A stretch of 64,000 bases of DNA from Escherichia phage phiWec188 (LC739537.1); one strand, 5' to 3'; shown: positions 37,010 through 50,045, counted from the first letter of the stretch. The notes: generated by a model from the letters alone, not told the origin. Program-made: numbers and translations.

Positions 37010-37040
37010 AAAAAGAAAGGGCGCTTAGTGCGCCCCTTGT
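37010..37040 (-). terminator. intrinsic terminator (minus strand)
   Basis: Minus strand: ggggcgcACTAAgcgccc then tttcttttt; just 3' of gene 37052..37471. Confidence 0.7.
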
Positions 37041-37051
37041 TTTGTTGTCGA

Positions 37052-37471
37052 TTATAAAGCTTCATAGATTGAGTATATCCGGTTCGCCAGGTCATTACGA
37101 AAGCGGAATTTTTCATCACGTTTAATCATCAGATCCTTAAAACCGCATTCTTTCAATGCTTCGTTAACTTTACTGCGGCATACTTTCATATTGTCCTGCG
37201 CGTCACCAATAAACTTATTGCTATGATGCATTGCTTTGATCTCTTCTTCCAGGACCAGGGCAACTACACGGATCGGATCAAGCTGATACGCGGTAACATC
37301 CATGCGGCATTGTAAACGGCTTTTAACGTCTGCCACCGGATATACTGCAACCTCTTCCCCGTCAACGTTCACGATAACCAGTTTACCATCAATTTCGAAG
37401 CCTTTAGCGGCGCTACCGTGACAAAAAGCGTTGTCGAAGGAGTAAGCTGGATTATTTGATTTAATGTTCAT
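37052..37471 (-). CDS. hypothetical protein
   Basis: 139 aa ORF; aaggacaacacc ATG context. Confidence 0.55.
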   Translation of the reverse strand: MNIKSNNPAYSFDNAFCHGSAAKGFEIDGKLVIVNVDGEEVAVYPVADVKSRLQCRMDVTAYQLDPIRVVALVLEEEIKAMHHSNKFIGDAQDNMKVCRSKVNEALKECGFKDLMIKRDEKFRFRNDLANRIYSIYEAL

Positions 37472-37577
37472 GGTGTTGTCCTTTGTTTCGTTTCGTTGTT
37501 TGCTGCCAGTGAGTTAAATATAATATAACGCCGATCCCCTGTCAATAGGGGATAGCGCATTATTTACATTTCTTTAC

Positions 37578-37605
37578 GTTAAAGGGCGCTTAGTGCGCCC
37601 TTGTA
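37578..37605 (-). terminator. intrinsic terminator (minus strand)
   Basis: Same gggcgcTTAGTgcgccc hairpin as at 37010; 3' of gene 37611..37979. Confidence 0.55.
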
Positions 37606-37610
37606 CAATC

Positions 37611-37979
37611 TTACTTTGTGCGGTTGTAAACGTTATCGCGTTCAACCATCAAGGCAAGGCGGATCAGTTGATCAGTTGTATCGCGTAAGCTGTCAGGCCA
37701 TGTTTTATTGTTCCAGCTATCTAAATTTGATTGAATATAGGTTTCAATGGCTTGATCCATATTGTCGAACAAGTTTGCCTCCAGGCTCTCGGCTGTTTCA
37801 CACTGGAAAGCATCAGCGACACTATTAATCAATAAGCAAGCCAGTAGATCAGCGTTGCGCCAATTTTTACGGATAGTTTCATCTTTCAGATAACCAACGA
37901 GATCAACCTTTGCGCCAGTGGTGGACGTTGCGATCACTTCTTGCGCTTTTTCAACTGCTTTAATTGCTGATTTGCTCAT
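37611..37979 (-). CDS. hypothetical protein
   Basis: 122 aa ORF; gaggaaaag RBS. Confidence 0.55.
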   Translation of the reverse strand: MSKSAIKAVEKAQEVIATSTTGAKVDLVGYLKDETIRKNWRNADLLACLLINSVADAFQCETAESLEANLFDNMDQAIETYIQSNLDSWNNKTWPDSLRDTTDQLIRLALMVERDNVYNRTK

Positions 37980-38057
37980 CTTCTTTTCCTCTTTGTGGGC
38001 TTGCTGTATTGCTCGCCCTACGCAATAACTATAAGTTAACAGGGTGTATAAAGCAAG

Positions 38058-38291
38058 CTATTTTTTATAAAATTTTTCTGCTGTGATATTCTTCCCTGTA
38101 GGCTTAACCGCTTGCAAGATCTTATCATGCGCCGGACGTCCAAAGGAATAAGATCCATAAACGGTAAACCAATAATCCCCGTCAGGTTGAACGGTTACGG
38201 CGGCGTAGGGTGTACCTCTCTCATTATCACCGATAAAGTGTGAAACATTGCCGTTAACGTTCGATTTAGTGCTTTTAATTTGTCCGATCAT
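38058..38291 (-). CDS. hypothetical protein
   Basis: 77 aa ORF; followed upstream by promoter-hairpin cassette at 38310-38370. Confidence 0.5.
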   Translation of the reverse strand: MIGQIKSTKSNVNGNVSHFIGDNERGTPYAAVTVQPDGDYWFTVYGSYSFGRPAHDKILQAVKPTGKNITAEKFYKK

Positions 38292-38309
38292 GGTGTTATT
38301 CCTATATTA

Positions 38310-38370
38310 GACGGGAAACATTCCCGCCCTACGTGATAAATAATAATATAAGCGTGATCCGGTGTCAATA
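38310..38370 (-). promoter_or_regulatory. promoter plus 5' hairpin cassette (copy 1 of 24)
   Basis: Minus strand: TTGACA, 17 bp, TATTAT, then cgggaaTGTTtcccg hairpin, then RBS/ATG of 38058..38291. Confidence 0.5.
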
Positions 38371-38542
38371 GGTAGAATTGTAAAGATTTGATAGTTTATC
38401 TCTTTGATGTTTTGTTGTTTGATAGGTGTTAGCTATCAATATATAGCGGGGTCGTCCGGTGATTACCTCCCCCGTTGCCAGTGCCGCCCGTTCAATAAGC
38501 ATAACAAAAAACAGGACAAAAACAAGCCCTGTTTTGTAAAGA

Positions 38543-38746
38543 TTAGATGATCTGCATATCCTCCACGATAATTTCTAATTTCCAAACAAGATGATCTAAG
38601 CTCCCTGATAAAAATGATTCCGATACATAACCGCCATCGGACACCGTAGCAAGGATCTCGCCATTTGCTTGCTCTTTGATTTGAACATCCAGGCGGTTAG
38701 CCTTTGCTTTATTCAGGACGGCGATCAGGCGGTTAGCTGTAGTCAT
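38543..38746 (-). CDS. hypothetical protein
   Basis: ORF 38543..38779; ATG 38746 lies after the hairpin and ggaagg RBS. Confidence 0.5.
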   Translation of the reverse strand: MTTANRLIAVLNKAKANRLDVQIKEQANGEILATVSDGGYVSESFLSGSLDHLVWKLEIIVEDMQII

Positions 38747-38765
38747 GGTGTTTTTCCTTCCAGTT

Positions 38766-38826
38766 GTGAGCGGCACCATTGCCGCCCTACGAAATACATC
38801 TTACACTATCCGGCACATCATGCAAG
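38766..38826 (-). promoter_or_regulatory. promoter plus 5' hairpin cassette
   Basis: Minus strand: TTGCAT, 16 bp, TGtaAGAT, then ggcggcAATGgtgccgc hairpin. Confidence 0.5.
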
Positions 38827-38831
38827 CTATT

Positions 38832-39023
38832 TTATACTTCGTCACCTATATAATCAGATCTGTTCTTCTCTGTCATACGCTTAAGCAATTCCTGCATATG
38901 GCTTATAGCTTGCAATGTGTCTTCTTCCAGGCTTGAATCCACATAATCAGGATCATTCTTTACCTTGCTATGGTTGTGATAACGCAACGCTGCTAATACC
39001 TTTCTAACTTGTTCTGCATTCAT
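38832..39023 (-). CDS. hypothetical protein
   Basis: 63 aa ORF; aggag RBS. Confidence 0.45.
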   Translation of the reverse strand: MNAEQVRKVLAALRYHNHSKVKNDPDYVDSSLEEDTLQAISHMQELLKRMTEKNRSDYIGDEV

Positions 39024-39035
39024 TTTTATTACTCC

Positions 39036-39170
39036 TTAAAACCAGGTGCCAACCGTTTCCAATAGGTCACTGACTACCAGAACAACACCGATTAGCACAT
39101 ATTTAACCAGGAAGGGGATTAGCGCCAGCGTTGCTACTATGATCCCCATTGTCATGATTACCTTTCTCAT
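39036..39170 (-). CDS. small membrane peptide (44 aa, not in ORF track)
   Basis: Hydrophobic (GIIVATLALIPFLVKYVLIGVVLVV); start overlaps stop of 39167..39457 (ATGA). Confidence 0.35.
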   Translation of the reverse strand: MRKVIMTMGIIVATLALIPFLVKYVLIGVVLVVSDLLETVGTWF

Positions 39171-39457
39171 TGTTGGCGGTTTACGTAAGCTTTACCGTTT
39201 ACGGTCATCGGTATGGCCTCAAGGTCTGGATCTTCCTTAAGGTCGCGTGCAAGCTCACCGCACCGGACACCCTCGAATCCGTGGTATTCTGTTTCCCCGT
39301 CCTTAAAAGTTTTAGCGGCAAGGCATAGGCGATAATTAACCCCGATCCGGTTTACTGCGTTGATATCGGTTAACGTGATCGATTCAGGCAAATCGTTAGC
39401 CATTACAGGCGCGTTAATACCAACAACCAGGGCAACTACTGCGATCATCTTTTTCAT
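39167..39457 (-). CDS. small secreted protein (signal peptide)
   Basis: MKKMIAVVALVVGINAPVMA signal-peptide-like N-terminus; 96 aa. Confidence 0.5.
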   Translation of the reverse strand: MKKMIAVVALVVGINAPVMANDLPESITLTDINAVNRIGVNYRLCLAAKTFKDGETEYHGFEGVRCGELARDLKEDPDLEAIPMTVNGKAYVNRQQ

Positions 39458-39508
39458 GTTGTCTATCCTCTTCCTATTGCGTTTAATGGGGCGTTGCCGC
39501 CCCGCTGA

Positions 39509-39733
39509 TTAATTACGTTGGCTGTTTTCTACTATCGACTTTAAAATAAAGTCAGTTACGCCCTTTGTGTCATCCGGCGGGAAGTTATCAGCATAGCACC
39601 AGGCATAAGCGCCATCAACTGGAAGCGGGAAGATATGCACGCTTAGATCCCCATAATCATATTCAGTTATTTCTACCTTGAGATCCGACAATTCAGCCAG
39701 TTTAATAGCTTGTAACATTCTAACAATACTCAT
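39509..39733 (-). CDS. hypothetical protein
   Basis: 74 aa ORF; preceded by ggggcg..cgcccc hairpin element. Confidence 0.5.
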   Translation of the reverse strand: MSIVRMLQAIKLAELSDLKVEITEYDYGDLSVHIFPLPVDGAYAWCYADNFPPDDTKGVTDFILKSIVENSQRN

Positions 39734-39772
39734 AATCTTTTCCTTTCTGATAGTGGGGCGTTGCCGCCCTTT

Positions 39773-40018
39773 TTAGAATTGACGCGTTACGCGATCGGTG
39801 TTTTCTTCCTTTACAACCTTACCTGTTGCTACCATTTCGCTGATTTTTTCATCGTTGATAATGTTGTTATTCTCTTTGATCCAGGTCCAACGATTACCCA
39901 TCAAAGTATTCCCTTTTAACGCATAATACCAAATGTTGTTAGGCATTTTGATCCAAGCCATACCGCGCGAATTTTTCGGGTCGTGGTAGATATTGCCAAT
40001 TTTAGTTGTCTGGTACAT
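39773..40018 (-). CDS. hypothetical protein
   Basis: 81 aa ORF; cassette at 40042-40098 upstream. Confidence 0.5.
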   Translation of the reverse strand: MYQTTKIGNIYHDPKNSRGMAWIKMPNNIWYYALKGNTLMGNRWTWIKENNNIINDEKISEMVATGKVVKEENTDRVTRQF

Positions 40019-40041
40019 GATGTTTTACCTTTTTCCAGGAA

Positions 40042-40098
40042 GCGGGAACTATTCCCGCCCTACGTGGTAAATATTATCATATTGACGATCCGTGTCAA
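40042..40098 (-). promoter_or_regulatory. promoter plus 5' hairpin cassette
   Basis: TTGACA, then TGATAATAT-type -10, then gcgggaATAGTtcccgc hairpin. Confidence 0.5.
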
Positions 40099-40118
40099 TA
40101 GTTTTTTGGAGTTTTTAC

Positions 40119-40520
40119 TTACAGGCCCAAGATAGCCCGTGCATCGTTACGCTGTTTAGTCTCAGTCATGATCATATTTAAAATGGTCGGATTAATATAA
40201 CCTTTCTCCATAGCTTCGCGGACTGGTACATCATAAGCACCGAAACCAGTGCGAACGATACGCACATCATTCAGATTAGTGTTATAGATCCCGCCTAAAT
40301 CAACCGACTGGAAAACGGCATCAACACTATATTCAGTGTTGCCATCGTTGACGTTTTCGATCTCAATGTTGCGAGACACCGCCCAACGTTTACAGCCTCC
40401 AATCAGGTAGCATTGTTCCTTTGTCAGATTACCATTGGAAACCGCATATTTCAGGGCTTCAGCGCCGAAAGTTTTAGCAATGTTAACAACGTCAGTATAA
40501 GAAAGGATCGTAATGTTCAT
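40119..40520 (-). CDS. hypothetical protein
   Basis: 133 aa ORF; cassette at 40541-40597 upstream. Confidence 0.55.
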   Translation of the reverse strand: MNITILSYTDVVNIAKTFGAEALKYAVSNGNLTKEQCYLIGGCKRWAVSRNIEIENVNDGNTEYSVDAVFQSVDLGGIYNTNLNDVRIVRTGFGAYDVPVREAMEKGYINPTILNMIMTETKQRNDARAILGL

Positions 40521-40540
40521 GGTTATAACTCCAAATGGTG

Positions 40541-40597
40541 AGCGGCACCATTGCCGCCCTACGTGGTAAATATTATCACACTGGTGATCTGTGTCAA
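40541..40597 (-). promoter_or_regulatory. promoter plus 5' hairpin cassette
   Basis: Minus strand TTGACA ... -10 ... ggcggcAATGgtgccgc ... RBS. Confidence 0.5.
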
Positions 40598-40622
40598 TAC
40601 TATTTATTCAATATAAATAAAA

Positions 40623-40847
40623 TTATGATGTGCGCTCAATTATGATAATGGTCTGTGGGATCTCGTTTTCTGCCACTATCAGGGCTTTTTTCTGCGTGAT
40701 AGTTATTTTAACACGTTGCAACGATGCGGTAAAGTCTTTCATTTCGTTATGTGCGGACTTGCTGCAATGCCAGATCTCAGGCTTACCAACTTGTAAGCCG
40801 CGTAAAAATTCCGTTTTGCCTGCTTTGTTCGTGAACATTTGTTTCAC
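40623..40847 (-). CDS. hypothetical protein
   Basis: 74 aa ORF. Confidence 0.45.
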   Translation of the reverse strand: MKQMFTNKAGKTEFLRGLQVGKPEIWHCSKSAHNEMKDFTASLQRVKITITQKKALIVAENEIPQTIIIIERTS

Positions 40848-40848
40848 C

Positions 40849-40953
40849 TTAACCGATACCGTGAGAAGATAGGATCATATTAGCCATAGTTGCAACCACT
40901 CCAACCGATAACGCCAGGCCAACTATTGCAACCGTGAAAATTTTCTCTAACAT
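40849..40953 (-). CDS. small membrane peptide (34 aa; start uncertain)
   Basis: ORF 40849..41052; ATG 40953 preceded by gaggg and located after the hairpin element. Confidence 0.3.
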   Translation of the reverse strand: MLEKIFTVAIVGLALSVGVVATMANMILSSHGIG

Positions 40954-41036
40954 GATGCTACCCTCTTTAATGGGCGTTGCCTTATTGCCCCGCCCTACGT
41001 GATACACTTTACCAGAAAACAAAATACTGTCAAGAT

Positions 41037-41174
41037 TTATTTTACTTCCCAAACGGAAAATTCACTACCTGGCGGGATCATTCTTTTAATCTTGTTTGCT
41101 GCTGCTACCAGGTCCACGGCTTGCACTGTAATAATATAACCAATTGTCGAGGCTGTTGCATTGAAAGTTTTCAT
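41037..41174 (-). CDS. small hypothetical protein (45 aa, not in ORF track)
   Basis: ATG 41174 preceded by gaggg; cassette hairpin at 41193-41210 just upstream. Confidence 0.35.
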   Translation of the reverse strand: MKTFNATASTIGYIITVQAVDLVAAANKIKRMIPPGSEFSVWEVK

Positions 41175-41232
41175 TATATTACCCTCACCATCGGCGGCAC
41201 CATTGCCGCCCTACAAGATGAATACTACGCGC

Positions 41233-41415
41233 TTACTTTGCTGTTGTCAACAAGGGGCGAAAAAACTTTTTGATCTGGCTTGCTGTTAGGCGCATATCTG
41301 CTTTGAGCGTTGCCAGGCGATAAGCCTTACCCTTAATCAGTTTATGGTGTCCGGTGCCGTTGCCGATGATAACATCAATTTCACACAATACACGGGAAGA
41401 ATCAATCTTTTTCAT
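41233..41415 (-). CDS. hypothetical protein
   Basis: 60 aa ORF. Confidence 0.45.
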   Translation of the reverse strand: MKKIDSSRVLCEIDVIIGNGTGHHKLIKGKAYRLATLKADMRLTASQIKKFFRPLLTTAK

Positions 41416-41463
41416 CTTGTTACCTTTCTTGTTATGGGGCGCTTGTCGCCCCTGGTTTATGGT

Positions 41464-41649
41464 TTATTTGACTATGTGACGATCATTATATTCAGTGTAA
41501 AACTCGCAACCATCGTCACGACTATCAAGTTTAACAATGTAACCAGTTTGATAACGTTCAATAGATACCATTGCATAAAACTTACCATTCAGGATATTTC
41601 TAACCAGATCGCCTTTTACCAATTCTTTCGTTTTCTTGTAAGTAGTCAT
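41464..41649 (-). CDS. hypothetical protein
   Basis: ORF 41464..41700; ATG 41649 downstream of hairpin. Confidence 0.5.
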   Translation of the reverse strand: MTTYKKTKELVKGDLVRNILNGKFYAMVSIERYQTGYIVKLDSRDDGCEFYTEYNDRHIVK

Positions 41650-41669
41650 GATGTTTTCTCTTCTGTTAG

Positions 41670-41726
41670 GCGGGGCGCTTGTCGCCCCTATGTGATACAT
41701 CTTATCAGGTTGATTCAGCTTGTCAA
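41670..41726 (-). promoter_or_regulatory. promoter plus 5' hairpin cassette (stem variant ggggcg/cgcccc)
   Basis: TTGACA, spacer, TGATAAGAT, then ggggcgACAAGcgcccc hairpin. Confidence 0.5.
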
Positions 41727-41727
41727 A

Positions 41728-41907
41728 CTATTTGTTAGCCGGATTATATGCCAGGACCGCGCCACTTGCTTTCACGCTTTCCGCTTCATAGTTGCGCAGA
41801 TCGTTTTCTGTAAGATTGAGCGCGATCACTTCCTCGATCTCAATACCAGTGGCAAGGGCGATCTCTTTAATGATGTTTGATGATCTGATAACGTTTACTG
41901 TTTTCAT
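41728..41907 (-). CDS. hypothetical protein
   Basis: ORF 41728..41964; ATG 41907 chosen (MKTVNV...). Confidence 0.45.
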   Translation of the reverse strand: MKTVNVIRSSNIIKEIALATGIEIEEVIALNLTENDLRNYEAESVKASGAVLAYNPANK

Positions 41908-41917
41908 GGTGTGCACC

Positions 41918-42037
41918 TTATAAGATGATTGATAAGATAGTGATAACGAAAGCGATAACACCAACGGCGATCGTAGTCTTACGCCCTTCGGATACTGCCG
42001 GATTCTCTACCGTGTATTCTACTGTGTATTTGTTCAT
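41918..42037 (-). CDS. small membrane peptide (39 aa, not in ORF track)
   Basis: ATG 42037 preceded by gagagga; C-terminal TM segment IAVGVIAFVITILSII. Confidence 0.3.
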   Translation of the reverse strand: MNKYTVEYTVENPAVSEGRKTTIAVGVIAFVITILSIIL

Positions 42038-42136
42038 TGTGTTATCCTCTCGCTTGCTTTGGGAACTATTCCCGCCGCCCTATGAATTAAATATACACTA
42101 TCTCAAAATGATTGCAAACCTTTTTCTAAATTATTT

Positions 42137-42421
42137 TTATGCAGTAAATAAACCATCGTTTACAACGGCGGCGATGATCTCCCGTGCCATTGATTCAGGG
42201 AACGGGGCGCTATAGTCCTGGCTTGTCTCGTCGCTGTCTGTTACCCAATGATAAGCCAACGAGTAAAAGCCTTTACTCCCTGTTTTCAGTGAAACGATGA
42301 TCACTCGGTTAAGTCCATCGGTAAACGTTGCCGTTAATGTGCTATCATCTTGCGTCATGTTGGACAAGTAAGCGGCATCATTAACCAGGGAAAACAGTAG
42401 CACCGTGTTAGCTTTAACCAT
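42137..42421 (-). CDS. hypothetical protein
   Basis: ORF 42137..42451; ATG 42421 after hairpin. Confidence 0.5.
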   Translation of the reverse strand: MVKANTVLLFSLVNDAAYLSNMTQDDSTLTATFTDGLNRVIIVSLKTGSKGFYSLAYHWVTDSDETSQDYSAPFPESMAREIIAAVVNDGLFTA

Positions 42422-42440
42422 AGTTTGATCCTCAAACGAG

Positions 42441-42497
42441 CGCGGTACCATTGCCGCCCTACGTGATACATCTTATCAGGTCTGATTATGGTGTCAA
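42441..42497 (-). promoter_or_regulatory. promoter plus 5' hairpin cassette
   Basis: TTGACA, 16 bp, TGATAAGAT, gtatcacgtag, then ggcggcAATGgtaccgc hairpin. Confidence 0.55.
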
Positions 42498-42503
42498 CCA
42501 CTT

Positions 42504-42689
42504 TTAAAGATATTTTATACTGATAACATTTTCAGGTTTAACCTGGTTATGATAAGCATCAATGTAAATCAAACCATCATTAGATAAGCCCAGGATCACG
42601 CCTTGCGCAATAAATCCGTATTCGTCGCGGTAACGGGCTGCTACTTTGTTCGTTGCGTTGTAGGCGGTTTTAATCTCGTTTAAGGTCAT
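42504..42689 (-). CDS. hypothetical protein
   Basis: 61 aa ORF. Confidence 0.45.
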   Translation of the reverse strand: MTLNEIKTAYNATNKVAARYRDEYGFIAQGVILGLSNDGLIYIDAYHNQVKPENVISIKYL

Positions 42690-42713
42690 GTGCTGTTATC
42701 CTCTCGTTAGATA

Positions 42714-42745
42714 TAAGAAAGGGCGCTATTTGCGCCCTTGTTTTG
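42714..42745 (-). terminator. intrinsic terminator (minus strand)
   Basis: gggcgcAAATAgcgccc hairpin with flanking A/T runs; third copy of this terminator type. Confidence 0.5.
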
Positions 42746-42892
42746 TTAGTCTTCCAGGTCCAGCCATGCACGTTTATCGGTGCGGTCGCGCTTAGTCTTG
42801 TTGCGCTTGTCGCCCTTGCGGACCACTTCTTCATTCCACGCTGCGCGAGTTTTGGAAGATTGGATTTTTTCGGCGCGATTAGATGTATTCAT
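42746..42892 (-). CDS. small basic protein (48 aa, not in ORF track)
   Basis: ATG 42892 preceded by agagga and the cassette at 42914-42972; replaces shadow plus ORF 42743..42982. Confidence 0.4.
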   Translation of the reverse strand: MNTSNRAEKIQSSKTRAAWNEEVVRKGDKRNKTKRDRTDKRAWLDLED

Positions 42893-42913
42893 GATGTTTC
42901 CTCTTTTTGTTGT

Positions 42914-42972
42914 GAGCGGCACCATTGCCGCCCTACGTGTTTAAATTTACTTTATTGTTTGATGCCTGTCAA
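42914..42972 (-). promoter_or_regulatory. promoter plus 5' hairpin cassette
   Basis: TTGACA ... -10 ... ggcggcAATGgtgccgc. Confidence 0.5.
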
Positions 42973-42988
42973 CTACTTTTAAAACTTT

Positions 42989-43342
42989 TTATTCGTGGGA
43001 AAGTGCAAGGATCACTCCTGCAAGGTATAGCCAATAGTTTTCCCTTTCTTTCTGGATCTTGCTTTCGCTGCTACGCTCGCTAATGTATCCCCAGGATGTT
43101 AACAACCGATCTACTTCCCAATATTCGAAAGCGATATTGATATCTGACGGTAAACCTTGTAACCATGAGGCTATTGCTCTGATAACGTTATGATTGTAGT
43201 ATTCTTGGTTATAGGGATACCAGTACTCATTCTTAAAACGTCGCATCAATTCCGCGATCTTCTCTTTCTCTTCTGTGATGCTATACTCGCTATAATCAAT
43301 TGAGGCCAGAATATAAAGTTTAATTGCATTTTGTGCTTTCAT
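42989..43342 (-). CDS. hypothetical protein
   Basis: 117 aa ORF; cassette upstream at 43362-43420. Confidence 0.55.
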   Translation of the reverse strand: MKAQNAIKLYILASIDYSEYSITEEKEKIAELMRRFKNEYWYPYNQEYYNHNVIRAIASWLQGLPSDINIAFEYWEVDRLLTSWGYISERSSESKIQKERENYWLYLAGVILALSHE

Positions 43343-43361
43343 GGTGTCTCTCTTCTGTTGT

Positions 43362-43420
43362 GAGCGGCACCATTGCCGCCCTACGTGTTACATCTTACCG
43401 GATTTTTAAAACTTGTCAAT
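43362..43420 (-). promoter_or_regulatory. promoter plus 5' hairpin cassette
   Basis: TTGACA, spacer, TAAGAT, then canonical hairpin. Confidence 0.5.
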
Positions 43421-43641
43421 CATTTTTCTACTATCATTTGATATCCTGTTTCAATGTTAGTAAACACCGTGATCCCGTCCTGGCGTTCACTCATAAGGAA
43501 GCAAGGCGCTAACATCCTTCCTACTTCCTTGCACTCGTTATAAGCGGCGGTGATATCTCCTGCTGCTTTGTCTTCGGTGGTGAATGTATCGTTCACGTAA
43601 ACTTGACCAGCGACAACGGCGACAATAGCGAAAGTGATCAT
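43420..43641 (-). CDS. hypothetical protein
   Basis: 73 aa ORF. Confidence 0.45.
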   Translation of the reverse strand: MITFAIVAVVAGQVYVNDTFTTEDKAAGDITAAYNECKEVGRMLAPCFLMSERQDGITVFTNIETGYQMIVEK

Positions 43642-43721
43642 GATGTTTTCTCTCTTTGTGATAAGTGGTTTCTCTTCTCAATAGCGCCTATTGAGCGGGG
43701 CGCTATTACGAAGGGCTAACC

Positions 43722-43889
43722 TTATTTGTTACGGCTTAACGTGCCCAAGTTATCAGCATGACGCAGACCAGGGAAGATCCACGCGCCTGATGTATCTTTT
43801 ACAGGGGCTTTAAGCGTAGCGCCCAGGTTGGCGGCGTTAACTTTACGTGCAACGTTGCGAGCGGCTTCACGGGTAGTAAAAGTAATCAT
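43722..43889 (-). CDS. small hypothetical protein (55 aa, not in ORF track)
   Basis: ATG 43889 preceded by agaggaaaa; hairpin variant ggcggtgg..ccgccgcc upstream. Confidence 0.4.
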   Translation of the reverse strand: MITFTTREAARNVARKVNAANLGATLKAPVKDTSGAWIFPGLRHADNLGTLSRNK

Positions 43890-43978
43890 GATGTTTTCCT
43901 CTTCTCTTTGTTAGGCGGTGGACCATTCCGCCGCCTTGATGTAATACAGTTTACTTTATTTTATGGGGATTGCAAGCT

Positions 43979-44194
43979 TTAATTTAAGATTGTTAGTGTA
44001 AAATTGTAATCCCCTGCCTGATATACTACCTTGTTGCTAAAAGTTCCAACACGTTTCACATTGCAATATATACCCATAACACTTTTTACATCTTTGATGT
44101 TCTTAACGCCTGTAATGTCTTTATTGAAATAATCGTGATCGGAAAATAAAACTCGACTTGCATTTTTTAACAGTGTGCGGATATTAGCCATCAT
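43979..44194 (-). CDS. hypothetical protein
   Basis: ORF 43979..44224; ATG 44194 after hairpin. Confidence 0.5.
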   Translation of the reverse strand: MMANIRTLLKNASRVLFSDHDYFNKDITGVKNIKDVKSVMGIYCNVKRVGTFSNKVVYQAGDYNFTLTILN

Positions 44195-44213
44195 GATAAT
44201 CTCTCTTCTTGCT

Positions 44214-44270
44214 GGCGGCACCATTGCCGCCCTACGTAATACAGTTTACTCTTTTTCTTTCCCGTGTCAA
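44214..44270 (-). promoter_or_regulatory. promoter plus 5' hairpin cassette
   Basis: TTGACA ... ggcggcAATGgtgccgcc. Confidence 0.5.
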
Positions 44271-44279
44271 CAATCTTTT

Positions 44280-44507
44280 TCAGATTAATTCGTCCAGGCA
44301 TAACAGGCGATCAACGTTGAGATCGGTCAGGCTGATGGTTGGCACCTGATAAGATTCGATGTACTCAACGCTCGCATATTCCCCAAAATTAGCAATAGCC
44401 CACTTATTCAAGATCTCACATACATCATTAATCTTTTTATTTGTTACAACGGCTATAACCTGGGAAGTGCCAACGGTGCCGGATACGCGAACAATATTGA
44501 TAGCCAT
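44280..44507 (-). CDS. hypothetical protein
   Basis: 75 aa ORF. Confidence 0.5.
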   Translation of the reverse strand: MAINIVRVSGTVGTSQVIAVVTNKKINDVCEILNKWAIANFGEYASVEYIESYQVPTISLTDLNVDRLLCLDELI

Positions 44508-44594
44508 GATTTTTCTCTCTTCTGTTAGGCGGGGCGCTTGTCGCCCCTATGTGATACATCTTACACTAATTTAAAACGTTGTCAACTGTTTTTA

Positions 44595-44834
44595 TTACAT
44601 TCCGACCATCGCGGCGCGGATCGCAGTAGTGCTATATTTGAAACCGTCTGGAGTCTTATCTTGTCCAGTCTCTTGTAAAAATAGCATCATATGACGGGCC
44701 GCATCATTGCGATTAGTGCTATCGTTAATAAAGTCCAGGGCCAACCGATACAATGATTCATCGTTGTTAATCCAAAGGCTTACATTCCAATGATTTTTAT
44801 TTTTGTGACCTAAGAACATTTTTGATTTAGCCAT
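44595..44834 (-). CDS. hypothetical protein
   Basis: 79 aa ORF. Confidence 0.5.
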   Translation of the reverse strand: MAKSKMFLGHKNKNHWNVSLWINNDESLYRLALDFINDSTNRNDAARHMMLFLQETGQDKTPDGFKYSTTAIRAAMVGM

Positions 44835-44923
44835 GATGTTAATCTCTCTTTGAGTGGGGCGGGAACTATTCCCGCGCCCTATGTAATACAGTTTACTCTT
44901 TTTATTCGTGCTGTCAACGTCTT

Positions 44924-45289
44924 TTATAAATCTTTTTTACGCTTAACATCGCTTGCATGACTGTATACAGCGATCCCATTGTCACGGCAAAAACGGGAAA
45001 GATAGCTGCCGCGTGAAAATTCTTTGCCTTCAAGGTTGATAACCTTGCTAAATTCTTCCAGGGCGACGGTATCAAAATGATCACCATAGCCATATTGAAA
45101 CGGAACGTTAACCACTTCAATCAATTTACCGCAGATCTCGACGTCCACACTTAAAGAAAAATATGTATTACCGTAGGACTGTTGAAACCAGCGACGGGCG
45201 CTAATGTGCACTGCTTCAATGCTGGATAGTTCGATTTTAGCAGTGTTAGCCAGGGTAGCATAAGCGGACACATTGATATTTTTAGCCAT
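44924..45289 (-). CDS. hypothetical protein
   Basis: 121 aa ORF. Confidence 0.55.
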   Translation of the reverse strand: MAKNINVSAYATLANTAKIELSSIEAVHISARRWFQQSYGNTYFSLSVDVEICGKLIEVVNVPFQYGYGDHFDTVALEEFSKVINLEGKEFSRGSYLSRFCRDNGIAVYSHASDVKRKKDL

Positions 45290-45386
45290 GTTCTTACTCT
45301 CTCTTTTTGGTTAGTGGGAAGTATTCCCGATAAAAGTTATTATGCTTGTACTATCGCCTATTGTCAATAGCACAAGACTAAAACTT

Positions 45387-45566
45387 TTAACGATAATCAT
45401 TATAGGCTTGATTGACCTGACGAATGTAACATTCGAAAGCAAGATCAATATATTCGTATTCATGCACATAATCCCCATAGGTTACTACATACATTCCTAA
45501 CGTTTCCTTATATGTCAGAAGAATGGAATCTAAGCCCACGATTTCAGTTTTTGCAATGATAGCCAT
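45387..45566 (-). CDS. small hypothetical protein (59 aa, not in ORF track)
   Basis: ATG 45566 located after cassette hairpin 45588-45605. Confidence 0.4.
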   Translation of the reverse strand: MAIIAKTEIVGLDSILLTYKETLGMYVVTYGDYVHEYEYIDLAFECYIRQVNQAYNDYR

Positions 45567-45587
45567 GATGATAACCTTTTTATTGTT

Positions 45588-45644
45588 GGCGGCACCATTG
45601 CCGCCCTACGTGATAAACTATAACAGAATTTTAAACAGTGTCAA
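45588..45644 (-). promoter_or_regulatory. promoter plus 5' hairpin cassette
   Basis: TTGACA, spacer, TAGTTTATCAC -10 region, then ggcggcAATGgtgccgcc. Confidence 0.5.
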
Positions 45645-45655
45645 ACGTTTTTTTC

Positions 45656-45901
45656 TTAGTTTGCGAAATATGGTGCGGCGGCTGATGCCGTTAAGCTCCA
45701 AGTGATTTGGCTATCGATCAAGTATTCTTCATTCTTGATCCGCACGGTATCAATCGAGAAGTTACTAAAAGGCTTGCTTTTAATTTTACGAACAACCGTT
45801 ACACGACGGTTATTTTTCATCTCTTTTAACTGAATCCAGGCGTAACCTTTTTCATTAACAAAGATTTCATTGTGATTGGTGATAGATGATAAGTGTTTCA
45901 T
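45656..45901 (-). CDS. hypothetical protein
   Basis: 81 aa ORF. Confidence 0.5.
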   Translation of the reverse strand: MKHLSSITNHNEIFVNEKGYAWIQLKEMKNNRRVTVVRKIKSKPFSNFSIDTVRIKNEEYLIDSQITWSLTASAAAPYFAN

Positions 45902-45991
45902 GATATTCTCTCTTCTGTTTTGAGCGGTGGACCATTCCGCCGCCCTATGTGATACAGCTTACTACTTTTTGAAACGTTGTCAAGGATATTT

Positions 45992-46273
45992 TTAACTGTA
46001 TGATCCGCACCGCTCGCAATAGTGATCATCGTCGTCATCTGCCGCCTGGCTGATAAAGTGATCAACCTTTGATTTCAGGCTTTTATAATTGTTCTCAACT
46101 TCCTGTAGTCGTCGCTGGTAATATTCCAGGGCTTGCACATATGCCGCTTGTTCGGTTTTCGCTTGCATCGATAAATTCATGCCGCGCGTTTCATCGTATA
46201 GCCAATAACCATCGTTGCATTCACTGATCGATAGGGTAGGGCTTAGTTTTTCGTGACTAATTACCTTGCTCAT
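45992..46273 (-). CDS. hypothetical protein (C-terminal CxxC)
   Basis: 93 aa ORF. Confidence 0.5.
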   Translation of the reverse strand: MSKVISHEKLSPTLSISECNDGYWLYDETRGMNLSMQAKTEQAAYVQALEYYQRRLQEVENNYKSLKSKVDHFISQAADDDDDHYCERCGSYS

Positions 46274-46283
46274 AGTGTCCGCC

Positions 46284-46475
46284 TTATAGAATGACTACGT
46301 TATCTTTTTCGTGCAATGTGGCGGTAATGTTACGCCCCTTGTTGCAAGTTAGCGAGATCTTGCGGTGATGCGGTGGCACTTTTTCAATGTGCGCTACTGT
46401 CATTGTGATCCGGTGCAATTCTACCTTGTCACCTGCTTTCAATGTTGCTACGTTGCCAGTGATATTTTTAAACAT
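46284..46475 (-). CDS. hypothetical protein
   Basis: 63 aa ORF. Confidence 0.45.
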   Translation of the reverse strand: MFKNITGNVATLKAGDKVELHRITMTVAHIEKVPPHHRKISLTCNKGRNITATLHEKDNVVIL

Positions 46476-46485
46476 GGTGTGCCCC

Positions 46486-46596
46486 TTACTTGAAAATGAT
46501 TGTTGTGATAACTGCTACGGTGATCCAAAATGGAACAACCAAGATAATAGCGTTAATCGTTCCAACTGTCAAACTGTTTTCTTTCTTGATCATCAT
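46486..46596 (-). CDS. small membrane peptide (36 aa; start uncertain)
   Basis: ORF 46486..46716 trimmed to ATGATG at 46596; a second 27-aa hydrophobic ORF (46604..46687) lies just upstream. Confidence 0.3.
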   Translation of the reverse strand: MMIKKENSLTVGTINAIILVVPFWITVAVITTIIFK

Positions 46597-46761
46597 GTTT
46601 TCCTTACAGTGTCCAAAGAATGATTTCAAGTGCAGCACGGAAACCAGGAATAAAATTGATTGCAAAAAACAGGGAAGTAGTAAACATTTTTCTATCCTTT
46701 CGGTTGTGAGCGGCACCGTTGCCGCCCTATGAGTTAACTATAAGTGATCACGTTTTACCTG

Positions 46762-47319
46762 TCAACCTAAATCATCAAAATAAAGATAATTTTTTTCGGC
46801 TTCTTTCTTCTCTTCTTGTGATGCCTCAAAGACTGGAAGGAAGTGATCAAAGGTGATGCACTCAACCGCGTGATCGTCTTCCTCTTCCTGGTCTTCCTCC
46901 TGGGCTATGGCTGCAATTTTGGCCAATTTCCTTTCAGCTTGGATCAGCTTACCATCTAATACGCTTTTTGCAGTACTGTACGCCGTCCAGGTGATGCGCT
47001 TACTTTCGAGCGCGGCATCAAGCGCCGCTATCTTGCTGGGGTATTCATCCAGGACACGAAAAGCCGGATCTACCTTGTACAGCGGATTATCTTTCGCGCC
47101 GTCGCTATCATCTGCGGCGCTTGCAATGTCAGCGTTACCATTTGCCAGCCAACCAGGGCGATCGCTGCGTGTTTTGGTATTCCCATGACTACGCGCCGAT
47201 CTGTTGCCTACTTGCTCGCCACTATAGCCAGGAGCATGATCGATCATGTCGTCCGGTATAATGCGCGGATCATTAACGTCATGTTTTACCCAGGACTGGA
47301 TCACATATTCGCGCCCCAT
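46762..47319 (-). CDS. hypothetical acidic protein
   Basis: 185 aa ORF; acidic C-terminal third. Confidence 0.55.
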   Translation of the reverse strand: MGREYVIQSWVKHDVNDPRIIPDDMIDHAPGYSGEQVGNRSARSHGNTKTRSDRPGWLANGNADIASAADDSDGAKDNPLYKVDPAFRVLDEYPSKIAALDAALESKRITWTAYSTAKSVLDGKLIQAERKLAKIAAIAQEEDQEEEDDHAVECITFDHFLPVFEASQEEKKEAEKNYLYFDDLG

Positions 47320-47579
47320 TATACACCCCTTTTAACAATCATTTCACACACAAAAAATAAGCTGGCGGAATCACGGCAAGGATAGAAAGATGTACGATAA
47401 TCTCTCACCCCTCCTTTTATGATCTCCGTGGTTTTACCTGATAGCACATTGTAAATAGTGTAACTTGTCGGACTGTTTTTATATACCTTGCCAGGGTAGA
47501 TCATAACATAACGAGCAAGGTTATAAAATTCCTCATTACGAAAGGCTATGATCTTCCCGCATACCTTAAGAAAGTGCAC
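47319..47579 (-). CDS. hypothetical protein
   Basis: 86 aa ORF. Confidence 0.45.
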   Translation of the reverse strand: MHFLKVCGKIIAFRNEEFYNLARYVMIYPGKVYKNSPTSYTIYNVLSGKTTEIIKGGVRDYRTSFYPCRDSASLFFVCEMIVKRGV

Positions 47580-47589
47580 GTTAGCCCCC

Positions 47590-47862
47590 TTACAGCAAAA
47601 AGTTTACTTGTCTTGCTGTTAATGTAGTATCAACCATTTTCGGGCTTTTATAATCCACAAAGCGCGCGGTTTTTTCAATAGCGAAACCTAAATAATCTTG
47701 CTTGTTGAAATTACATTCTTTCTTAAATGTTTCCCGCGCTACGGCGATCGCTGCGTCCAGGGATAAGCGCCCGTCAATATTGATGTTAGCGAAAGATCCG
47801 CCACCGCTCATAGGTTTGCCAGTGGTGCCAGTTACGATCATTGTTGCGCTATATGATGCCAT
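47590..47862 (-). CDS. hypothetical protein
   Basis: ORF 47590..47898; ATG 47862 follows the hairpin. Confidence 0.5.
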   Translation of the reverse strand: MASYSATMIVTGTTGKPMSGGGSFANINIDGRLSLDAAIAVARETFKKECNFNKQDYLGFAIEKTARFVDYKSPKMVDTTLTARQVNFLL

Positions 47863-47884
47863 GATGATAATCTCTCTTAGTTGT

Positions 47885-47946
47885 GAGCGGTGGACCATTC
47901 CGCCGCTCTACGTGATACATCTTATCAGGTTGTTGCGTATTGTCAA
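47885..47946 (-). promoter_or_regulatory. promoter plus 5' hairpin cassette
   Basis: TTGACA, 16 bp, TGATAAGAT, gtatcacgtag, then gagcggcggAATGGtccaccgctc hairpin. Confidence 0.55.
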
Positions 47947-47952
47947 TACTTT

Positions 47953-48150
47953 TTATTCTTCACCCGCGATACGGCGGACACGTTCGGATTTAGTAGCGTG
48001 TTGGTCTTCTGTAATGACTCCCATTTCTAACAGGGAATCAATGAAAGATAGCACCGTTTCATGATCATCTTGAGGATGACTAAATTCAGTAAAGCCGTTT
48101 ACCACTACGTTGATTTGTCCTGCTTTCGCTACTATGTGCAATGTTGCCAT
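47953..48150 (-). CDS. hypothetical protein
   Basis: ORF 47953..48240; ATG 48150 downstream of cassette. Confidence 0.5.
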   Translation of the reverse strand: MATLHIVAKAGQINVVVNGFTEFSHPQDDHETVLSFIDSLLEMGVITEDQHATKSERVRRIAGEE

Positions 48151-48169
48151 GATCTTAACTCCAGATAGT

Positions 48170-48230
48170 GAGCAGCACCATTGCCGCCCTACGTGATGAA
48201 TAGTACGCCGCCACCTGGCGAACGTCAACC
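48170..48230 (-). promoter_or_regulatory. promoter plus 5' hairpin cassette (last copy)
   Basis: TTGACG -35 variant; hairpin with one G-U pair (ggcggcAATGgtgctgc). Confidence 0.45.
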
Positions 48231-48337
48231 ACTTTTTCAATCTTTTTCATTTCTTTTTTGCTTGCTATATATAAAGGAAAGGGCTATTATCTTTCTACCG
48301 CGCCAACCAGGGCGCACAACAAAGAAAGGGCGACACC

Positions 48338-48604
48338 ATGACAACTACTACATTACACCTTATGCACTCTTTAGGCTGGCAAGGCGGCACGGTCCACCAG
48401 GTAGCAAGCGCAACGGGCTTAAAGGTTGAAACCGTTCTCACCTTGGGCGATCATAAAGTGGAAGATATAGACCATTTTGATCCGTTCGCTGATGGTTATT
48501 TATGGGCTTGCAGTGGCGGCGGTGAAAACAAGATACCGCCAGGGGCGCGGGGTGATATGTATTTTTGGTTAGGCGTTCTTGCCTGGCAAGAAGACAAAAA
48601 ATAG
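48338..48604 (+). CDS. hypothetical protein
   Basis: 88 aa ORF on plus strand; agaaaggg RBS. Confidence 0.5.
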   Translation: MTTTTLHLMHSLGWQGGTVHQVASATGLKVETVLTLGDHKVEDIDHFDPFADGYLWACSGGGENKIPPGARGDMYFWLGVLAWQEDKK

Positions 48605-48847: not shown

Positions 48848-49070
48848 CCTGCCCGTCATTCTCTAAATGAGAATGATTATCATTTACCTTATTGAATAAA
48901 AATCAATCTTATTTGGATAGTTGAATGAGAATCAATCTCATTCGCAAGGTGAGAATAAATCTCATTTACGCTATTGAATGCGAATCATTCGTATTTACCA
49001 TGTTAAATGAGAATCATTATCATTCTCATTCGTATTTCGATTTTAAGTGAGAATAATTCTCATTTCGGTA
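48848..49070. repeat. six tandem copies of the TGAGAAT-N-ATTCTCA palindrome (Fur-box-like)
   Basis: aatgagaatgattatcattta, aatgagaatcaatctcattcg, ggtgagaataaatctcattta, aatgcgaatcattcgtattta, aatgagaatcattatcattctcattcg, agtgagaataattctcatttcgg. Confidence 0.55.
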
Positions 49071-49080: not shown

Positions 49081-49330
49081 AAACTTTAGAATTTGCTTTT
49101 CAACTTTCACTTTTGTAAAAGCAAAAAAACTTTAAATACCTGGTGCGCGCGACTTTTTTAAAAATTTTTCTCGGTTTTTTGTTTTGCAATCTGGTCCACC
49201 CATTTGAGATAATGTGTGTAAACTTTAGAATTTGGTTTTGGATTCTCGTTTTTGTAAACTCATAAAAAGTTTAAATAATTGTAGGGATTTTTGAGATAGT
49301 TTGCTTGTAAGATTTGAGATAATCTTTCCT
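49081..49330. repeat. direct repeats (about 40 bp, two copies) plus three tttgagata motifs
   Basis: aaactttagaatttgcttttcaactttcacttttgtaaaagc (49081) versus aaactttagaatttggttttggattctcgtttttgtaaactc (49224); tttgagata at about 49203, 49291, 49313. Confidence 0.5.
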
Positions 49331-49517: not shown

Positions 49518-50045
49518 TTATGGTATTTTGGCTGGGAACAGGATTTTAATCAGATTGTTGTGGTATTGTCCTAAAAGATTCTGCCCTTTCCAGTTGGCAG
49601 GATTAAGCACCCCTGGTTCATACATACCCATTCCAATTCCGTAAACCTTATCGTAAGGGCTGGCCTCAACGAATGTTTTGAATTGATACAGGCGCAAGTC
49701 AGAGTAAAGATCAGGGTTCTGTGTATACTTCAAGCATAAGCCTCGCATTACGATACGCTCTCGGTGCTCTTCCCACACGTCATTATTAAAACCAGACACC
49801 GCTCGACCCATACGTTTGTAGTACGCCTGTCCCTTCTCGTCGTCACGCTTCATTGAGTGATAAAGGATAGCTGCTGCGATTACCTGATCCTTGAACAGCA
49901 AAGCCTTACGCCACATCATGTATTGCTCTACACAACAGAAAGTGTCACTGTACCCTGGTTCCGTCTCTGTAAATGGCGCAATGTACCAATTGCTAAACAC
50001 ATCTTTATGTGAAAAGAAGAATACATATTCATCAGTTATTCGCAT
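49518..50045 (-). CDS. NADAR-domain protein (YbiA/DUF1768-like)
   Basis: 175 aa; FSNW, VEQYMMWRKA, NLLGQY segments parallel the conserved NADAR blocks of E. coli YbiA. Confidence 0.6.
   Translation of the reverse strand: MRITDEYVFFFSHKDVFSNWYIAPFTETEPGYSDTFCCVEQYMMWRKALLFKDQVIAAAILYHSMKRDDEKGQAYYKRMGRAVSGFNNDVWEEHRERIVMRGLCLKYTQNPDLYSDLRLYQFKTFVEASPYDKVYGIGMGMYEPGVLNPANWKGQNLLGQYHNNLIKILFPAKIP

Follow-up and report, generated by a model that had tools for sequence, protein, structure and literature searches.

A repeated promoter and stem-loop cassette in the small-gene block of Escherichia phage phiWec188

The small-gene block and its cassettes

The analysed window was a stretch of 64,000 nucleotides (nt) from Escherichia phage phiWec188 (LC739537.1), a Phapecoctavirus (Stephanstirmvirinae, phAPEC8-like) with a genome of ~150 kb, and the element considered here is a cassette, composed of a promoter and a GC-rich hairpin, which recurs in the intergenic gaps of a block of small genes. 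This block (37,052-48,150) included 38 genes encoding 27 to 185 amino acids (aa), all located on the minus strand and each displaying a Shine-Dalgarno (SD) sequence and an intact frame; genes are designated below by the coordinate of their ATG. Intergenic gaps of at least 35 nt numbered 27, to which the gap listing adds a 28th of 1,367 nt upstream of the first array gene. Their contents were 21 full cassettes, one variant cassette (gene 45289) and five hairpins devoid of a recognisable promoter, preceding genes 43641, 42689, 41415, 39733 and 39457; the gap before gene 37471 displayed a consensus promoter and no hairpin. With 21 cassettes for 38 genes, some cassettes headed mini-operons of two to five genes. 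The array was confined to one ~10-kb block of the ~150-kb genome and this block was mosaic among relatives. Positions 40,000-46,000 were 99.9 % identical to Escherichia phage phiWec190 over most of their length, and 80-95 % identical, in a mosaic pattern, to ~200 other Phapecoctavirus genomes.

Full cassettes displayed a constant order on the coding strand: TTGACA, 16-17 nt, TAnnnT, ~10-11 nt, a GC-rich stem-loop, an A/G-rich leader of ~20 nt, the SD sequence and the ATG. All 21 promoters were sigma-70-like, with TTGACA or one to two mismatches to it, a 16-17 nt spacer and TAnnnT; the -35 hexamer was TTGACA in 16 copies and TTGACG, TTGCAA, TTGCAT or TTGCTT in the others. The stretch between the -10 hexamer and the stem was usually GTATCAC(G/A)TAG, ending in a pyrimidine-purine step followed by TAG (Y-R-TAG). 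In all full copies the GC stem followed the -10 at a distance of 9-11 nt, and 47-58 nt separated the end of the -10 from the ATG in all 22 promoter-hairpin cassettes (the 21 full copies and the variant). The arrangement proposed in an original prediction, which had been drawn by a model from the sequence of the window, namely a sigma-70-type promoter followed by a GC hairpin at a fixed distance and consistently placed relative to start codons, was thereby borne out by alignment.

All 24 hairpin positions listed in that prediction were real and located on the minus (coding) strand. Their description as 24 promoter plus hairpin cassettes held for 20 full copies and for the variant before gene 45289; the three remaining positions (39487, 39755 and 41446) lacked a recognisable promoter. 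A full cassette at 37,980-38,056 and two hairpin-only gaps at 43,680-43,707 and 42,719-42,739 had been overlooked. Copies had also been called near-identical, which was an overstatement: mean column identity was 62 % over the 22 aligned copies and at least six stem variants were encountered in the window, the canonical stem GGCGGCAatggTGCCGCC being displayed by ~10 copies. Likewise, the extended -10 turned out not to be a general feature, TGn being present in only seven copies. Column identity reached at least 90 % in the leader and in the 5' arm GGGCGG, a level comparable to that of the -35 hexamer.

The array was far beyond chance expectation. The string CACGTAGGGCGG occurred 17 times at two mismatches or fewer, against 1.4 expected, and 16 of these 17 occurrences were on the minus strand between 38.3 and 48.2 kb. 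Perfect GC hairpins clustered at 38.7-46.7 kb, and of 24 promoter-like sites scoring at least 10/12 in a consensus scan, 22 were on the minus strand of the array block. A covariance model built from 12 cassette copies matched the 64-kb window exclusively at 38,308-48,232; all its matches were on the minus strand, the best E-value being 4e-16. These results confirmed that the cassette array is real.

Hairpin structure, read-through and gene exchange

A Y-R step was found 7-8 nt past the -10 hexamer in 20 out of 21 copies. Start-site selection by E. coli RNA polymerase prefers a Y-R step at that distance, and we infer that transcripts start there. With this predicted start the stem begins at ~+4, which agreed with the proposed location of the hairpin at the 5' end of the transcript; the same hairpins were also encountered without promoter, directly past stop codons, and for these the proposed location did not hold. 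Over its first 40 nt, the predicted transcript folded stably in most copies, with energies of -11.5 to -18.8 kcal/mol and z-scores mostly between -3 and -5.6. In copies with the 3' flank CTCAC, G+1 and U+2 were paired as well. Weakened hairpins were found in two copies, those of genes 42037 (z = -0.55) and 42421 (z = -1.7). The idea that the ATG in the hairpin loop might serve as an alternative in-frame start was rejected: six of 14 were in frame and four were open, which is the chance level.

An alignment of 105 model matches (A3), gathered from the window and from seven loci of related phages, was used to examine pairing. At stem pair 2, GC was found 35 times, GU 37 times and AU four times, the other 11 cells being non-standard, of types not itemised. 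For 47 of the 65 unique hairpins, the sense strand gave the more stable fold of the two strands (mean difference -1.3 kcal/mol, Wilcoxon p = 1e-4). Counts of G.U pairs in minimum free energy folds of the two strands were not discriminating (32 versus 27), so that the strand argument rests on the energy asymmetry and on the GC/GU/AU pair counts. Covariation counts in A3 were modest: double changes were found at two pairs, the columns being scattered by indels that distinguish the stem variants.

Comparison of orthologues one by one was more informative than the A3 column counts. Orthologues of gene 47862 shared the same promoter half and displayed GAGCGGCGGAatggTCCACCGCTC in the window, GGGCGGGAAgtggTTTCCCGCTC in Schickermooser and GGGCGGCAatagTGCCGCTC in Justusliebigvirus Bas62. 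Gene 44507, whose protein was 96-99 % identical among the compared phages, was preceded by GGGGCGacaagCGCCCC in the window versus GGCGGGAA(A/G)tggTTTCCCGCC elsewhere, again with the promoter half kept. Every orthologue stem variant still paired, and G.U pairs in the window copies of genes 38291 and 48150 were replaced by G:C in orthologues. Since pairing was kept across differing stems and since the sense strand folded better, these comparisons point to an RNA structure on the coding strand rather than to a DNA palindrome. Sequence was also partly retained: the leader Y-R-TAG-R-G was present in 55 and the apical AAT[AG]G in 48 of the 65 unique copies.

The cassette hairpins resemble rho-independent terminators in their GC-rich stem and short loop, but differ from them by the lack of a T-run in every cassette copy. 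A terminator consensus scan revealed no U/T-run after the stem in any of the 22 cassette hairpins and produced only three terminator-like calls on the minus strand of the array (42,739, 38,535 and 37,038). One corresponded to the promoterless hairpin with T-run before the 61-aa gene 42689 (42,719-42,739); the other two were canonical-looking intrinsic terminators composed of a stem and a T-run, located after gene 38746 (38,508-38,535) and, closing the array, after gene 37471 (37,016-37,038). A canonical terminator reading of the cassette hairpins was rejected on account of the missing T-runs, and the original view that the hairpin, having no U-tract, is not a terminator was upheld: no cassette hairpin was called terminator-like.

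Four genes without a promoter of their own lay directly behind hairpins lacking a U-tract. These hairpins were found at 43,680-43,707 (AATAGCGCC...GGCGCTATT, 73-aa gene 43641), at 41,436-41,452 (GGGGCGacaagCGCCCC, 13 nt past a stop codon, 60-aa gene 41415), at 39,756-39,769 (GGGCGgcaaCGCCC, immediately past a stop codon, 74-aa gene 39733) and at 39,488-39,503 (GGGGCGgcaaCGCCCC, 96-aa gene 39457), all on the minus strand. Because these genes sit behind them, polymerase must read through such hairpins, which argues against strong termination; the cassette hairpins are thus probably not efficient terminators. The gap of gene 41174 displayed a full cassette in the window and a hairpin alone at two of the related loci (L002 and L003), and that of gene 38291 was hairpin-only in Vequintavirus PDX. 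Judged from such gap contents, no element of the gaps is as widespread as the hairpin, the promoter being optional, so that the role of the hairpin would not be restricted to primary 5' ends.

Comparison with phiWec190 revealed that a 14-kb region was 99.8-100 % identical, save for one segment of ~800 base pairs (bp) and three genes that was missing from the window. At this place the cassette at 41,650-41,726 was chimeric: its promoter and hairpin corresponded to the upstream phiWec190 cassette, and its leader end and gene to the downstream one, with the crossover within the shared leader AACAGAAGAGA. A hybrid cassette was likewise found at loci L005 and L010, which lacked gene 45566 and where gene 45289 carried the cassette of gene 45566. 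In comparisons with five Phapecoctavirus relatives, 40 out of 60 ends of homology blocks fell in cassette gaps; these gaps account for 23 % of the region. The counts are not independent, related phages sharing breakpoints. Of 24 ends of DNA homology blocks to other genera, 14 were in cassette gaps, and homologues of cassette-flanked window genes were encountered in jumbo Asteriusvirus vB_Ec-M-J (L007), Justusliebigvirus Bas62 (L008) and Vequintavirus PDX (L009) in a different gene order. Crossover points varied, being located in the leader AACAGAAGAGA, at the border between RTAG and stem, or near the -10, and their dispersion over several points of the cassette suggests general homologous recombination rather than a site-specific mechanism. 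The cassettes are thus also joints at which genes are shuffled by recombination.

An 83-nt cassette query matched 343 phage records. In the complete Phapecoctavirus genome MG065650 (MG065650.1, L010-L012), 21 of 22 model matches with E < 0.01 were found within 9.3 kb on one strand; the remaining match (L012, 36,216-36,280; at ~136.2 kb of the record), the sole good copy located outside the array in this genome, preceded a gene for a TerC-like integral membrane protein, in a part of the genome that the window does not include. The same cassette design was displayed by Bas62, by PDX and by the 21.5-kb direct terminal repeat of vB_Ec-M-J, in the order TTGACA, 16-17 nt, TAnnnT, ~10 nt ending in CATAG, a GC hairpin with apical AAT(A/G)G, leader, SD and ATG, and these cassettes did not display a U-tract after the hairpin either. 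By its motif order the design is common to at least four genera, Phapecoctavirus, Justusliebigvirus, Vequintavirus and Asteriusvirus. The suggested covariance-model and other-phage searches therefore gave matches confined to the array in the window and the same design in three further genera. A search of 5,426 complete E. coli genomes (20,395 E. coli records) with an 84-nt cassette gave no match. No published description of the cassette was found in the accessible literature on rV5, phAPEC8 and Stephanstirmvirinae, subscription journals being mostly uncovered and an earlier description being possible; the rV5 genome paper lists 33 sigma-70 promoters and does not mention the hairpin.

Record MG065650.1 is labelled 'Campylobacter phage B15' (UNVERIFIED, host C. 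jejuni). Its cassettes displayed E. coli-type sigma-70 promoters and were collinear with the window; the C. jejuni host label looks doubtful. A separate observation concerned T5-like phage cott162 (L006, MF431740), whose left terminal repeat contained, at ~1,480-1,560, a weak promoter TTGCGC-17-TAATAT followed by TTATCACGTAGGGCGGCAATG. This sequence was identical to the Phapecoctavirus promoter-leader core over 22 of 23 nt and was followed, within the pre-early region, by small genes and the A2 operon. Matches to the core recurred in many T5-like Salmonella and E. coli phages and may represent a remnant of cassette exchange.

Array proteins offered few functional clues. Every PHROGs match of the 37 proteins considered was of 'unknown function', and Pfam gave Phage_1_1 (T7 gp1.1), DUF7249 and DUF1033 together with five weak matches (E 4e-4 to 8e-3). 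PADLOC returned nothing credible among the same 37 proteins, with two marginal matches (E 1.7e-4 and 1.1e-3). The originally suggested function in host takeover or anti-defence thus gained no support from these database comparisons. The Phage_1_1 match (E = 7.7e-12) was displayed by a 48-aa gene at 42,746-42,892 (minus strand); the T7 gene 1.1 family consists of small basic early proteins of unknown function common to T7-like phages. Consensus host-type promoters, this gene 1.1 homologue and the location of the Asteriusvirus array inside a direct terminal repeat suggest that the array genes are expressed early.

Proposed function and alternative explanations

The explanation that we favour, to which we assign a probability of roughly 0.6, is composite: the cassette would be a portable early expression unit combined with an RNA stem-loop acting as nuclease barrier and with a stretch of recombination homology. 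The array would then represent a hyperplastic early-gene block in which each small gene or mini-operon is equipped with its own portable cassette. Unmodified host RNA polymerase would use the near-consensus sigma-70 promoter and start at the Y-R step without phage factors. The stem-loop, beginning ~4 nt past the start, would exert its effect at the RNA level, and hindering nucleases is its most likely function: primary transcripts would be shielded against the 5'-end-dependent decay by RppH and RNase E, and in read-through transcripts it would form an internal or 3' barrier, each cistron's message being stabilised and insulated from its neighbours. Both in such read-through transcripts and in promoterless gaps, the stem-loop could also guard ends produced by processing and prevent foreign upstream sequence from pairing with the leader and SD. 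The standard A/G-rich leader, unstructured and carrying SD and ATG, would be the third functional part. Finally, because 60-80 nt of each cassette are shared, the copies could serve as homology for general recombination, by which flanked genes would be deleted, inserted or swapped, within one genome or between co-infecting phages of different genera.

The stabilising function of the hairpin is, as a step on its own, more tentative and comes slightly short of even odds. It had been the first of the roles originally considered and it remains the leading idea, being favoured by the covariation and by the G.U pairs on the sense strand, both of which concern the RNA level. 5' secondary structure protects E. 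coli mRNAs, and RppH and RNase E both need single-stranded 5' ends (PMC3997798). The known 5'-terminal stabilising stem-loops of E. coli ompA and papA (Emory/Bouvet/Belasco, reviewed in PMC3997798) resemble the cassette in that a stable hairpin stands a few nt from the 5' end (here a predicted one), followed by an unstructured leader and an SD, and the same block to RppH and RNase E is expected. They differ from it in being single and gene-specific and in having mapped 5' ends, whereas here a repeated module with predicted ends is encountered, whose hairpins also occur internally without promoter.

Several points weigh against this explanation. The transcript start is a predicted one, and a start 2 nt earlier, at the A of CAC, would leave 5 nt unpaired and weaken the protection. 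Promoterless hairpins right after stop codons, and gaps switching between full and hairpin-only states, indicate that a purely 5'-terminal role is not the whole story. As to recombination, shared breakpoints reduce the weight of the counts given above, and intergenic positions are where boundaries of gene replacements would be expected in any case. Stability alone does not require the degree of conservation displayed by the Y-R-TAG leader, the GGGCGG 5' arm and the apical AAT(A/G)G, which hints at sequence-specific recognition. By analogy with the stem-loops discussed next, the hairpin might also attenuate rather than protect.

The closest known system is that of the promoter-early stem-loops (PeSLs) of T4-like phages RB49/phi1, PST and nt-1 (Arbiol et al. 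2010, PMC2839356; Comeau et al. 2014, PMC4122927). Both systems consist of a repeated intergenic unit with a near-consensus sigma-70 early promoter, a GC stem-loop, SD and ATG, both cluster in hyperplastic regions rich in small ORFans, and in both, relatives differ by indels or replacements with junctions inside the repeats. PeSL stem-loops precede the promoter, separate its -35 from its -10 or cover the -10, and a terminator or attenuator role is ascribed to them (PMC2839356, PMC4122927), whereas the stem-loop of the cassette is fixed 9-11 nt downstream of the -10, within the transcript, lacks a U-tract and is read through. The phages differ as well, the cassette being harboured by Stephanstirmvirinae, Vequintavirinae and Asteriusvirus instead of T4-like phages. 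Because its stem-loop is transcribed after the promoter and read through, the cassette was not classed as a PeSL proper but as a variant within the broader kind of mobile regulatory cassette to which PeSLs belong.

A terminator or attenuator of PeSL type, with the hairpin damping transcription from upstream cassettes along the 21 tandem promoters and its 5' position being incidental, appears unlikely. It would account for the presence of a hairpin in nearly every gap of at least 35 nt, including five promoterless ones, 5-15 nt past the stop codon, and for the count of just three T-run terminators for 22 promoters in 11 kb; moreover, the PeSL stem-loop of RB49/phi1 cut downstream reporter expression, lowering lacZ read-through as much as rrnB T1 (PMC2839356). 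Against it, cassette hairpins lack a following U-tract in the window as well as in the other genera, and promoterless genes 43641, 41415, 39733 and 39457 require substantial read-through. In addition, a hairpin downstream of its own promoter would damp its own transcript, a situation avoided in PeSLs, whose stem-loops are upstream of or inside the promoter.

Conservation of sequence beyond pairing raises the question of whether leader and hairpin (RUAG-GGCGG...AAU(R)G loop) constitute a specific recognition tag bound by a phage or host factor, with possible roles in RNA polymerase modification of nut/put type, in early-gene shut-off through a regulator of translation or decay, or in selective protection during accelerated decay of host mRNA. 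Leader and 5' arm are conserved like the -35 hexamer, at 90 % or more, Y-R-TAG-R-G (55/65) and AAT[AG]G (48/65) persist across four genera while the mid-stem varies, and the promoter-leader core is found, identical over 22 of 23 nt, in the T5-like left terminal repeat. Such conservation could nevertheless come from recent common descent and gene conversion among copies, and variants that look functional lack the motifs, with loops ACAAG and GCAA or stems GGGGCG and GGGAA. No candidate binding protein was identified, the 37 array proteins being all of unknown function. Placement just past early promoters recalls lambda nut (boxA/boxB) and HK022 put, RNA hairpins that act in cis on the transcribing polymerase. 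The resemblance is one of placement only: cassette loops are not the boxB GAAAA pentaloop, 21 copies stand against two, and no N-like protein was identified. A lambda-type nut site with boxA (CGCUCUUA / GCUCUUUAACAA) was rejected, boxA-like matches numbering 76 against 79 expected and none being in a full cassette; the sole one in the array was in the promoterless gap at 41,429. Matches to GCTCTTTAACAA at three mismatches or fewer were at chance level and absent from full cassettes. Taken as such, the recognition tag is quite improbable. A wider version, hardly less improbable, would regard the leader-hairpin 5'-RUAG-GGCGG...AAU(R)G... as an early-message tag shared by at least four genera, recognised by a host or phage factor and spread by cassette exchange, with a remnant in T5-like phages. 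Such a tag might exempt early mRNAs from RNase E decay accelerated by the phage, allow polymerase read-through or switch off the regulon jointly.

Far less probable than any of these is an element acting as DNA, be it a cruciform, an operator overlapping +1, a repetitive extragenic palindromic (REP)-like element or a site-specific recombination site. The palindrome does overlap the predicted start, recombination junctions do map to cassettes, and GTAG followed by a GC palindrome recalls the layout of E. coli REPs. However, only the mRNA-sense strand accepts G.U pairs, and the alternation of GC, GU and AU is an RNA signature; the same facts disfavour the originally considered protein-binding palindrome overlapping +1. 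All copies are in one orientation with the genes, and crossovers at differing points of the cassette fit general homologous recombination, not a fixed cleavage site. REPs can act as barriers to 3' exonucleases. Like REPs and the bacterial interspersed mosaic elements that contain them, cassettes combine a GTAG tetranucleotide with a GC-rich palindrome and are intercistronic, past stop codons. Unlike REPs, which are imperfect palindromes of ~35 nt with hundreds of copies in the host and no fixed orientation, cassettes have stems of 6-10 bp in one orientation. Together with the absence of matches in the 5,426 complete E. coli genomes, this stem length ruled out membership in the E. coli REPs and a host origin.

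If the favoured composite explanation is true, large virulent coliphages outside the T4 group package their accessory early genes as standard expression units, and these promoter-hairpin-leader-SD units double as homology for gene hopping between unrelated phages. The PeSL idea would then be extended beyond T4-like phages, with a changed internal order and the hairpin inside the message, and a concrete reason would be provided why blocks of early ORFans are the most mosaic parts of these genomes. The cassette would also offer a sequence handle for early genes, candidates for host takeover or anti-defence, in rV5-like, phi92-like and jumbo therapy phages, as well as ready-made, strong and insulated expression parts for E. 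coli. It is a clean regulatory and evolutionary module in several genera of therapeutic phages, although of a kind that will not surprise PeSL specialists.

Individual cassettes and neighbouring features

Followed in the direction of transcription (all elements on the minus strand), the array opened with the full cassette of the 65-aa gene 48150 (48,151-48,228), composed of TTGACG, 17 nt, TACTAT and a hairpin at 48,168-48,192 with two G.U pairs. The 90-aa gene 47862 was preceded by a full cassette (47,863-47,946) with TTGACA-16-TGnTAAGAT and the long hairpin GAGCGGCGGAatggTCCACCGCTC, and a four-gene mini-operon starting at gene 46687 by another (46,688-46,765), whose -35 overlapped the 3' end of the upstream 185-aa gene. 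Full cassettes of the 81-aa gene 45901 (45,902-45,983) and of the 59-aa gene 45566 (45,567-45,644), the latter with the canonical GGCGGCAatggTGCCGCC stem, were followed by the variant of the 121-aa gene 45289 (45,290-45,367), which displayed TTGACA-17-CATAAT, a short hairpin GGGAAtacTTCCC of -5.5 kcal/mol and no RTAG leader. Next were the full cassettes of the 79-aa gene 44834 (44,835-44,917; stem GGGCGCGGGAAtagTTCCCGCCCC), the 75-aa gene 44507 (44,508-44,585; stem GGGGCGacaagCGCCCC), the 71-aa gene 44194 (44,195-44,270) and the 55-aa gene 43889 (43,890-43,975; weaker -35 TTGCAA). That of the 117-aa gene 43342 (43,343-43,419) was a near-best match to the model with 76 bits, and the 48-aa gene of the T7 gp1.1 family (ATG 42892) possessed a full cassette at 42,893-42,972.

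Two successive copies displayed the weakened hairpins mentioned above: the full cassette of the 94-aa gene 42421 (42,422-42,497), where a mismatch was responsible, and the cassette heading the 39-aa and 59-aa genes from ATG 42037 (42,038-42,117), with -35 TTGCAA and a degraded hairpin. The chimeric full cassette (41,650-41,726), situated at the deletion junction relative to phiWec190, preceded the 61-aa gene 41649. Further full cassettes belonged to the 45-aa gene 41174 (41,175-41,250), with its -35 within the upstream gene, and to the 34-aa and 71-aa genes from ATG 40953 (40,954-41,033; stem GGGCGGGGCaataaGGCAACGCCC), where the entire module was also found in Vequintavirus PDX. The best model match, with 77 bits, was the full cassette of the 133-aa gene 40520 (40,521-40,597), which shared a GATC in its spacer with that of the 81-aa gene 40018 (40,019-40,098; stem GGGCGGGAAtagTTCCCGCT). 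The last full cassettes were those of the 67-aa gene 38746 (38,747-38,825; -35 TTGCAT), the 77-aa gene 38291 (38,292-38,368), whose stem G.U pairs are the ones found as G:C in orthologues, and the 122-aa gene 37979 (37,980-38,056; weak -35 TTGCTT), which is the copy overlooked in the original prediction. Finally, the hairpin-less promoter TTGACA-17-TATATT of the 139-aa gene 37471 was located at 37,472-37,545.

Two minor observations concerned the promoters. A GATC (Dam site) was found in the spacer between -35 and -10 of four promoters sharing ctaTTGACAC(n)GGATC... (38,363-38,345, 40,093-40,076, 40,592-40,575 and 37,540-37,522), with -10 hexamers TAATAT, TATTAT or TATATT; this sub-family may consist of methylation-sensitive promoters or reflect a recent duplication. 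A perfect promoter-like site without following hairpin, TTGACA-17-TATTAT, was located at 46,544-46,572 (minus strand) inside a 36-aa gene (ATG 46596) and is either a chance occurrence or an internal promoter for the following genes.

An Rfam scan of the whole 64-kb window gave no match to curated RNA families at gathering score, and a tRNA scan found none. Near the array, the sole plus-strand gene was a divergent one of 88 aa (48,338-48,604) with no assigned function. Just upstream of the array, a NADAR-domain protein was encoded at 49,518-50,045 (minus strand; Pfam E = 4.7e-34); it is annotated in relatives as YbiA-like or as 'GTP cyclohydrolase II'.

The array was flanked by non-coding blocks at ~48.6-49.5 kb and 35.5-37.05 kb, in which no open reading frame with SD, tRNA or Rfam match was found. 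The upstream one contained a 58-nt direct repeat (49,081-49,138 and 49,220-49,277), whose copies were 81 % identical and were adjoined by three copies of TTTGAGATAAT. A 7-1-7 palindrome, TGAGAATnATTCTCA, was repeated in both blocks (48,860-49,070 and 35,817-36,802). At two mismatches or fewer it gave five and two matches, seven in all versus 0.43 expected; of looser 22-nt copies, one block contained up to seven, spaced by 24-40 nt, and the other up to four. It differed from the E. coli Fur box TGATAATnATTATCA by one base per half-site, and these arrays may represent an iteron or origin, or operators bound by a protein of the phage or of its host.

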